NCBI RefSeq assembly: GCF_003334815.1
Contig: NZ_QOWO01000003.1
DNA: 64,000 nucleotides
From: Escherichia coli
Lineage (GTDB): Bacteria; Pseudomonadota; Gammaproteobacteria; Enterobacterales; Enterobacteriaceae
Strand: one strand, 5' to 3'
A program made the position numbers and the translations under genes. The notes below the pieces were generated by a model. That model did no database searches, was not told the DNA's origin, and saw only the letters and a program-made list of their open reading frames with translations. Positions 46,924-46,981 of the stretch are shown piece after piece. The first letter of the stretch is position 1. The number at the start of each line of letters is the position of its first letter.

Positions 46924-46940
46924 GTGTTCTCCTTATGAGC

Positions 46941-46970
46941 AAAAAAGGGAAGTGGCAAGCCACTTCCCTT
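46941..46970 (-). terminator. intrinsic terminator downstream of cadA
   Basis: Seen directly: hairpin gggaagtggc-aag-ccacttccc preceded on plus strand by A6 (T-run on minus strand); lies only 18 bp upstream of the dtpC start codon. Confidence 0.75.
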
Positions 46971-46981
46971 GTACGAGCTAA

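Follow-up and report, generated by a model that had tools for sequence, protein, structure and literature searches.

In E. coli, the peptide permease gene dtpC (formerly yjdL) starts directly behind the transcription terminator of cadA, which raises the question of how it is transcribed. The initial annotation had proposed that there is no room for an independent dtpC promoter, and that dtpC must be driven either by a promoter embedded in the 3' part of cadA or by read-through of the terminator, coupling a peptide transporter to the acid-induced cad operon. The present analysis indicates that the second route is probably the one used, i.e. that dtpC is expressed at low dose, as the third gene of the cad operon, through a leaky terminator.

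Organization of the cadA-dtpC junction

The window, i.e. the whole stretch of 64,000 nucleotides that was analyzed, covers the cad region of E. coli, in which cadC, cadB, cadA, dtpC and lysU follow one another in this order on the minus strand. The first gene of the cad operon, cadB (49209..50543), codes for the lysine:cadaverine antiporter, and the CadC-dependent promoter Pcad is presumably located upstream of it, in 50544..50907. Then comes cadA (lysine decarboxylase, 715 aa, 46982..49129), for which the ORF list gave 46982..49168, counted from an in-frame ATG further upstream of the annotated start at 49129. It is followed by dtpC (45466..46923), which codes for a proton-coupled di/tripeptide permease of 485 aa, and by lysU (43712..45229), the gene of the inducible lysyl-tRNA synthetase, 236 nt downstream of dtpC. 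Gene identities were taken from the RefSeq annotation of identical E. coli DNA, for cadB and dtpC together with the ORF list. A 501-nt query around the junction had at least 99% identity to 5191 complete E. coli genomes, where it is annotated as cadA and dtpC, and window position x corresponds to position x+4309488 of MG1655 (NC_000913.3).

The cadA-dtpC intergenic region comprises 58 nt in total. Read on the minus strand, the cadA stop codon TAA (46984..46982) is followed by an 11-nt spacer, TTAGCTCGTAC (46971..46981), which varies freely and shows no conservation between genera. Next is the terminator hairpin AAGGGAAGTGG-CTTG-CCACTTCCCTT (46945..46970), with a stem of 11 bp, six of them G-C, and a 4-nt loop, and then a run of six T (46941..46946), the first two of which also close the stem. 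The 17 nt past the T-run, GCTCATAAGGAGAACAC (46940..46924), hold only the dtpC Shine-Dalgarno sequence AAGGAG (46929..46934), which lies 6 nt past the T-run and 5 nt before the dtpC ATG (46923..46921). The initial annotation had placed the terminator at 46941..46970 with its last T 18 nt upstream of the ATG, and both the coordinates and the distance were found to be right.

Several lines of evidence point to the hairpin being an intrinsic terminator. It was the best-ranked terminator in 45000..49500, far above all other sites in the scan. RNA folding gave a centroid hairpin of -18.2 kcal/mol with a z-score of -3.05, a value matched in only one of 200 shuffled sequences, and the d'Aubenton-Carafa-type score of the E. 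coli terminator was about 30. In an alignment of 27 distinct sequences, 96.9% of the cells were paired, four pairs had changed on both sides and 21 cells were compensatory; none of 500 shuffles reached these values, and in slid controls only 49–71% of the cells were paired. The 22-nt core of the hairpin occurs at a single site within the window, and 5210 of 5426 complete E. coli genomes have it in exactly one copy. The feature is thus beyond chance: it is single-copy, and its pairing is conserved with compensatory changes across genera. A G+C-rich stem-loop, a T-run directly 3' of it and pairing maintained in evolution are what is expected of an intrinsic terminator.

Other roles of the hairpin were considered and rejected. 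REP/BIME elements, which act as 3' stabilisers or partial terminators, are represented at the junctions of eight other loci by REP-like palindromes (L010, L018, L025, L029, L030, L033, L034 and L049), but the E. coli hairpin carries a T-run and is single-copy per genome and in the window, and is therefore not a REP. A bidirectional terminator was discarded as well: no gene converges on the site, and what comes behind the stem on the plus strand, TTGTACGAGC, makes a poor T-run. A sequence-specific role was unsupported, as unrelated hairpins occupy the same place in more distant cadA genes.

Some variation was seen within E. coli. In strain NDM6 (L065, NZ_CP083869.1, 4249800..4249846) the terminator reads CCACTTCC-TTTT-GCTCAT; the loss of one C and two T shortens this variant by three bases and leaves a T-run of four. 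The change may weaken the terminator, or it may be an assembly error in a homopolymer. The junction is absent altogether from 216 of the 5426 complete E. coli genomes and is plasmid-borne in three records. In NZ_CP025869.1 the similarity ends about 110 nt inside dtpC, and the annotation of this gene says no more than MFS transporter.

Promoter search and conservation of the junction

The statement that there is no room for an independent promoter proved correct: as described above, the 17 nt past the T-run contain the Shine-Dalgarno sequence only, and in two promoter scans no sigma-70-like site fell within the 58-nt intergenic region or overlapped it. The stricter consensus scan found no sigma-70-like site on the minus strand from 46924 to 48690. 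The permissive scan of 46900..47600 returned two weak sites only (47212..47184 and 47434..47405, each matching 8 of 12 positions), both upstream of the terminator. Over the final 680 nt of cadA, no promoter-like site was better than the former, ATGGTA-17-TATGAT (47184..47212, minus strand), which was detected by the permissive scan only. A conserved embedded promoter might be expected to produce an island of synonymous-site conservation, and none was found near the 3' end of cadA in a codon alignment of the last 200 codons from 50 species. With two 8/12 matches and no such island, a promoter embedded in cadA was rejected as the main driver of dtpC. Two further candidates were dismissed as poor matches that other genera do not have, namely a promoter overlapping the hairpin (TTAGCT-17-TTGCCA) and a -10-like CATAAG that would give a leaderless dtpC mRNA. 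The Cappable-seq TSS tables of Ettwiller 2016 returned nothing under the coordinates (in either genome version) or under the gene names. Within cadA, the cad strand carries a single sigma-70-like site that matches at 9 of 12 positions, TTTAAA-18-TATACT (48692..48721, minus strand), about 410 nt into the gene, and transcripts from this site would meet the terminator too.

Any transcript started inside cadA must cross the hairpin, so that the two routes originally offered reduce to one requirement, read-through. The proposal of the initial annotation was supported in its read-through form. The exception would be a start site within the hairpin or past it, for which no support was found.

The junction was then compared between species. 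A scan of one genome per species with a DtpC orthologue gave 54 loci, from genera that include Escherichia, Klebsiella, Raoultella, Kluyvera, Buttiauxella, Trabulsiella, Citrobacter, Pluralibacter, Yokenella, Phytobacter, Superficieibacter, Shimwellia and Serratia, and also from Salmonella arizonae and diarizonae. The cadB-cadA genes (or the end of cadA where the flank was short) were found directly upstream of dtpC on the same strand in all 54 loci, and the cad-type hairpin was kept in 50. In four loci (L018, L029, L030 and L033) a REP-like palindrome without a T-run replaces the terminator, and in six loci REP-like or other insertions lie between the hairpin and the dtpC ribosome-binding site. 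Between the T-run and the ATG lay 17–20 nt in 30 loci, 27–35 nt in 12 (Kluyvera, Serratia) and 42–51 nt in two. Runs of five to seven T were kept in most Enterobacteriaceae loci and of three to four T in Serratia, and AAGGAG or GGGAG was present at the same place in related loci.

Beyond this set, Salmonella enterica, found from the CadA side, had the same hairpin in a cadA-dtpC gap of 55 nt. In Obesumbacterium and Edwardsiella (Hafniaceae), different hairpins with T-runs were found in gaps of 73 and 82 nt, followed by a PTR2-family gene. The terminator-then-dtpC layout is common to Enterobacteriaceae, Yersiniaceae and Hafniaceae, and an intact dtpC ORF, its Shine-Dalgarno sequence and the spacing are kept in these three families, in more than 55 species. 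On sequence grounds, the position of dtpC directly behind a predicted terminator, with no room for a promoter, is conserved in the three families. In Atlantibacter, Plesiomonas, Vibrio cholerae, Pantoea alhagi and Dongshaea, cadA is not followed by dtpC, and each of them carries a terminator of its own at this place; different hairpins occupy the terminator position in Hafniaceae, Vibrio and Plesiomonas. As species lacking dtpC also have a terminator after cadA, it appears to be an old feature of cadBA, and termination of cadBA alone would explain the conservation of the hairpin, which is thus no proof of selection for leakiness.

The junction has been altered in several lineages. REP/BIME-like palindromes (GCCGGGTGGCGC...GTAGGCC...) lie between the terminator and dtpC in L010, L025, L034 and L049 and replace the terminator in L018; such inserts (Trabulsiella, Citrobacter, Pluralibacter and other Enterobacteriaceae) widen the gap to 92–143 nt. 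Superficieibacter sp. (L036) and Buttiauxella agrestis (L037) carry an insertion of 140–175 nt right after CTTCCC-TT(T), by which the T-run is lost, and their terminator score was negative. These inserts start with ...AGA(C/T)(C/T)GC(T/G)GACAAAG and end with ...GTTTG(T/C)TATCAACC, which suggests a small mobile element. In Serratia (L042–L046, L051, L055 and L056), the T-run is shorter, TTT(T)G, the score is 10–21 compared with 30 in E. coli, and behind the terminator lies a conserved spacer of 28 nt that ends in GATGGGAG; the cadA terminator of these species may let more transcripts through.

Acid induction of dtpC and probable read-through of the terminator

Published expression data were used to examine the predicted coupling of dtpC to the cad operon. 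Following rapid acidification, induction (log2) was 3.1 for cadB, 1.2 for cadA and 1.2 for yjdL at 5 min, and 4.7, 3.2 and 2.6, respectively, at 10 min (Kannan 2008, PMC2270276, Table 1). These values form a wave running from 5' to 3', in which yjdL tracks cadA.

RNA-seq and Ribo-seq data are available for pH 4.4, 5.8 and 7.6 (Schumacher 2023, PMC10746267 supplements). The RNA values (in this order of pH) were about 2322, 535 and 3.3 RPKM for cadA and about 79, 11 and 4.8 RPKM for dtpC, and the ribosome footprints about 2176, 460 and 2.4 RPKM for cadA and about 133, 9.3 and 5.9 RPKM for dtpC. All are means, and the column order was deduced from the internal consistency of the supplements: the listed translation efficiency equals block 1 divided by block 2, and the cadA fold changes match Tables 2 and 3 of the paper. 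According to these values, dtpC RNA was up-regulated 2.3 fold at pH 5.8 and 16 fold at pH 4.4, and its footprints 22 fold at pH 4.4; the contrast between pH 4.4 and pH 5.8 had an adjusted p of about 4e-25. With a translation efficiency of about 1.0–1.8, dtpC is well translated (PMC10746267). The coupling of dtpC to the acid-induced cad operon was therefore seen, as a correlation, both in the arrays and in the RNA-seq/Ribo-seq data.

At pH 7.6, where Pcad is off, dtpC was as low as cadA, indicating that no appreciable independent promoter is active there. At the same time, the dtpC value at this pH (about 5 RPKM) was far above 1–3% of that of cadA, and this excess points to some cad-independent background transcription. 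After subtraction of the neutral-pH value, dtpC RNA amounted to about 3.2% of cadA RNA at pH 4.4 and about 1.2% at pH 5.8. These values are consistent with a terminator that stops roughly 97–99% of the transcripts, an estimate only, as mRNA stability differs between the genes. Expressed as a ratio, RNA dropped 30–90 fold from cadA to dtpC under induction, which reflects termination indirectly, given the same differences in stability. The Term-seq supplement of Adams 2021 contained no rows for cadA, dtpC or lysU.

A gap lacking a promoter, co-regulation (as a correlation) and a conserved gene order and junction were all found, as expected of a read-through operon of the rpsU-dnaG type. In the proposed mechanism, the hairpin and T-run would act as the intrinsic terminator of the CadC-activated cadBA transcript, strong but incomplete, and about 1–3% of the RNA polymerases started at Pcad would pass it. 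Since the dtpC ribosome-binding site lies 6 nt past the T-run, the read-through transcripts would be translated into DtpC. We infer that dtpC and cadBA share one physically continuous message and that dtpC induction needs CadC. The cad operon would thus have dtpC as a third gene at a strongly reduced dose, and the terminator would be a valve setting the ratio, with much CadB and CadA and little DtpC. The apparent read-through was not constant (about 1.2% compared with 3.2%), so that it is either modulated or joined by a second input.

A rival explanation is an acid-responsive promoter of dtpC itself, located in the 3' part of cadA or overlapping the terminator, in which case dtpC and cadA would share acid signals and not a transcript. 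The two weak sites at 47212..47184 and 47434..47405 would be available for this, dtpC rose about 1.7 fold more than cadA between pH 5.8 and pH 4.4, and a low dtpC signal persisted at pH 7.6 with cad off. We nevertheless regard this explanation as unlikely: the sites match at 8 of 12 positions only and were missed by the stricter scan, any start upstream of 46970 would still meet a hairpin of about -18 kcal/mol and six T, the stretch from stop codon to hairpin is unconserved between genera, and cadA lacks a synonymous-site island. Moreover, dtpC was silent like cadA at pH 7.6, and its induction at 5 min was equal to that of cadA.

Read-through could also be regulated and depend on the condition, in place of a fixed leak. 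A ribosome ending cadA 11–13 nt before the hairpin might hinder its folding, or low pH might affect termination. In all loci with a cad-type hairpin, only 7–14 nt separate the stop codon from the GGG core of the stem, and the downstream edge of a terminating ribosome reaches about this far past the stop codon. The rise from about 1.2% to about 3.2% fits such regulation too, but it is a gap of 2–3 fold between two conditions, calculated after background subtraction, and differences in mRNA stability or sampling time could give it. Folding of the hairpin region revealed no alternative (antiterminator) pairing, and Rfam covariance models (including riboswitches and attenuators), run at a permissive threshold over 45000..49500, had no match at 46924..46984; their only match was a chance-level snoRNA elsewhere (E 0.41). 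Regulated read-through was thus judged improbable, to about the same degree as a separate promoter.

That the terminator is in effect complete, with dtpC essentially unexpressed, its signal pervasive background and its adjacency to cadA accidental, is the least probable of the alternatives and was considered very unlikely. It would agree with the low level of dtpC in all conditions (at most about 80 RPKM), with the terminators that follow cadA also where dtpC is absent, and with the finding that double and triple dtp mutants, including a dtpC deletion, colonise the mouse intestine like the wild type, only the quadruple mutant being defective (PMC10936423). Against it stand the rise of RNA (16 fold) and footprints (22 fold) at pH 4.4, the rise of about 6 fold in an independent array study (PMC2270276), and the retention of ORF, Shine-Dalgarno sequence and spacing in three families and more than 55 species, which is unexpected for a silent gene. 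Incomplete termination at the end of cadA, with dtpC as a weakly expressed member of the cad operon, is therefore the explanation preferred here.

DtpC as a possible third component of the Cad system

Partial terminators within operons are well known, examples being T1 of the rpsU-dnaG-rpoD operon, which separates rpsU from dnaG, and the rplL-rpoB attenuator. The cad junction resembles both in having a hairpin and U-tract between co-oriented genes with no promoter between them, a downstream gene that would depend on read-through, and a large fixed ratio. It differs from the rplL-rpoB attenuator in a steeper drop (about 30–90 fold), and from both in that the dtpC ribosome-binding site abuts the T-run (6 nt). 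A leaky terminator inside an operon is a well-known arrangement, and at the cad junction a textbook operon seems to extend further than has been appreciated. It would provide a clean natural example of a terminator setting an expression ratio of 30–90 fold, by a mechanism that is otherwise ordinary.

Read-through has been shown by SMRT-Cappable-seq for 40% of E. coli termination sites (PMC6131387). The supplementary text of that study has no cadA, dtpC or lysU row; the locus probably went unsampled, as cad is switched off in standard neutral media. The Cad or AR4 system has been described as having two structural genes, cadB and cadA (e.g. PMC10746267, PMC2270276), and dtpC is not counted as part of it, whereas promoter, inducing conditions and locus are the same as in the present proposal. 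In searchable full texts, no description of cad as an operon with a partial terminator was found, and a link of dtpC/yjdL to the cad operon appeared only in the gene list of Kannan 2008; EcoCyc or RegulonDB may record it. The structural and biochemical papers on DtpC leave the cad neighbourhood unmentioned, and the searchable literature yielded no transcriptome of a cadC mutant in which dtpC is listed.

While Cad is the textbook two-gene acid-resistance operon, DtpC is known from detailed structural studies and for an odd preference, namely for dipeptides with a C-terminal lysine (PMC3478282). The biological point of the arrangement, as we infer it, would be that X-Lys dipeptides are imported as a source of lysine for CadA. 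In a broader and tentative form, which we consider possible rather than likely, DtpC would be a functional third component of Cad acid resistance in Enterobacterales: X-Lys peptides would be imported and cleaved by peptidases, the lysine would be delivered to CadA, and the terminator would have been selected as a dosing valve that leaks more under stronger acid stress (about 1% at pH 5.8, about 3% at pH 4.4). Wiring to Pcad through a leaky terminator would give DtpC a testable role, i.e. the provision of lysine peptides when free lysine is scarce under acid stress.

The cad operon would then grow by one gene, and possibly by two with lysU. The dtpC-lysU gap (45230..45465, 236 nt, AT-rich) was scanned and is without an intrinsic-terminator-like site, and since no such terminator stands in front of lysU, transcripts leaking past the cadA terminator might continue into it. 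The induction of LysU at low pH has long been known. As part of the same tentative proposal, the leak may run into lysU in Escherichia and Klebsiella and could help to explain this induction. The LysU lysyl-tRNA synthetase has been reported to be less sensitive to cadaverine, and lysU to be induced at low pH (both as summarised in PMC5078493).

In Pseudescherichia vulneris and relatives (L029, L030 and L033), with the junction at about 3907..4000, dtpC ends at 5461 and lysU starts at 5488, so that lysU follows about 26 nt after dtpC compared with 236 nt in E. coli. Judged from this spacing and from the REP-like palindrome that replaces the terminator, cadB-cadA-dtpC-lysU looks like one tight four-gene operon in this lineage.

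Two further observations concern the surroundings of the cad locus. The genes yjdI and yjdJ, located just past ghoST on the other strand, were also induced by the acid shift (log2 1.1–1.3; PMC2270276, Table 1). Upstream of cadC lies the tRNA-Phe gene pheU (anticodon GAA; 53063..53138, minus strand), with a frameshifted integrase fragment (about 52706..52865) between pheU and cadC in the annotated strain; together they are the remnant of an integration site adjoining the cad locus.
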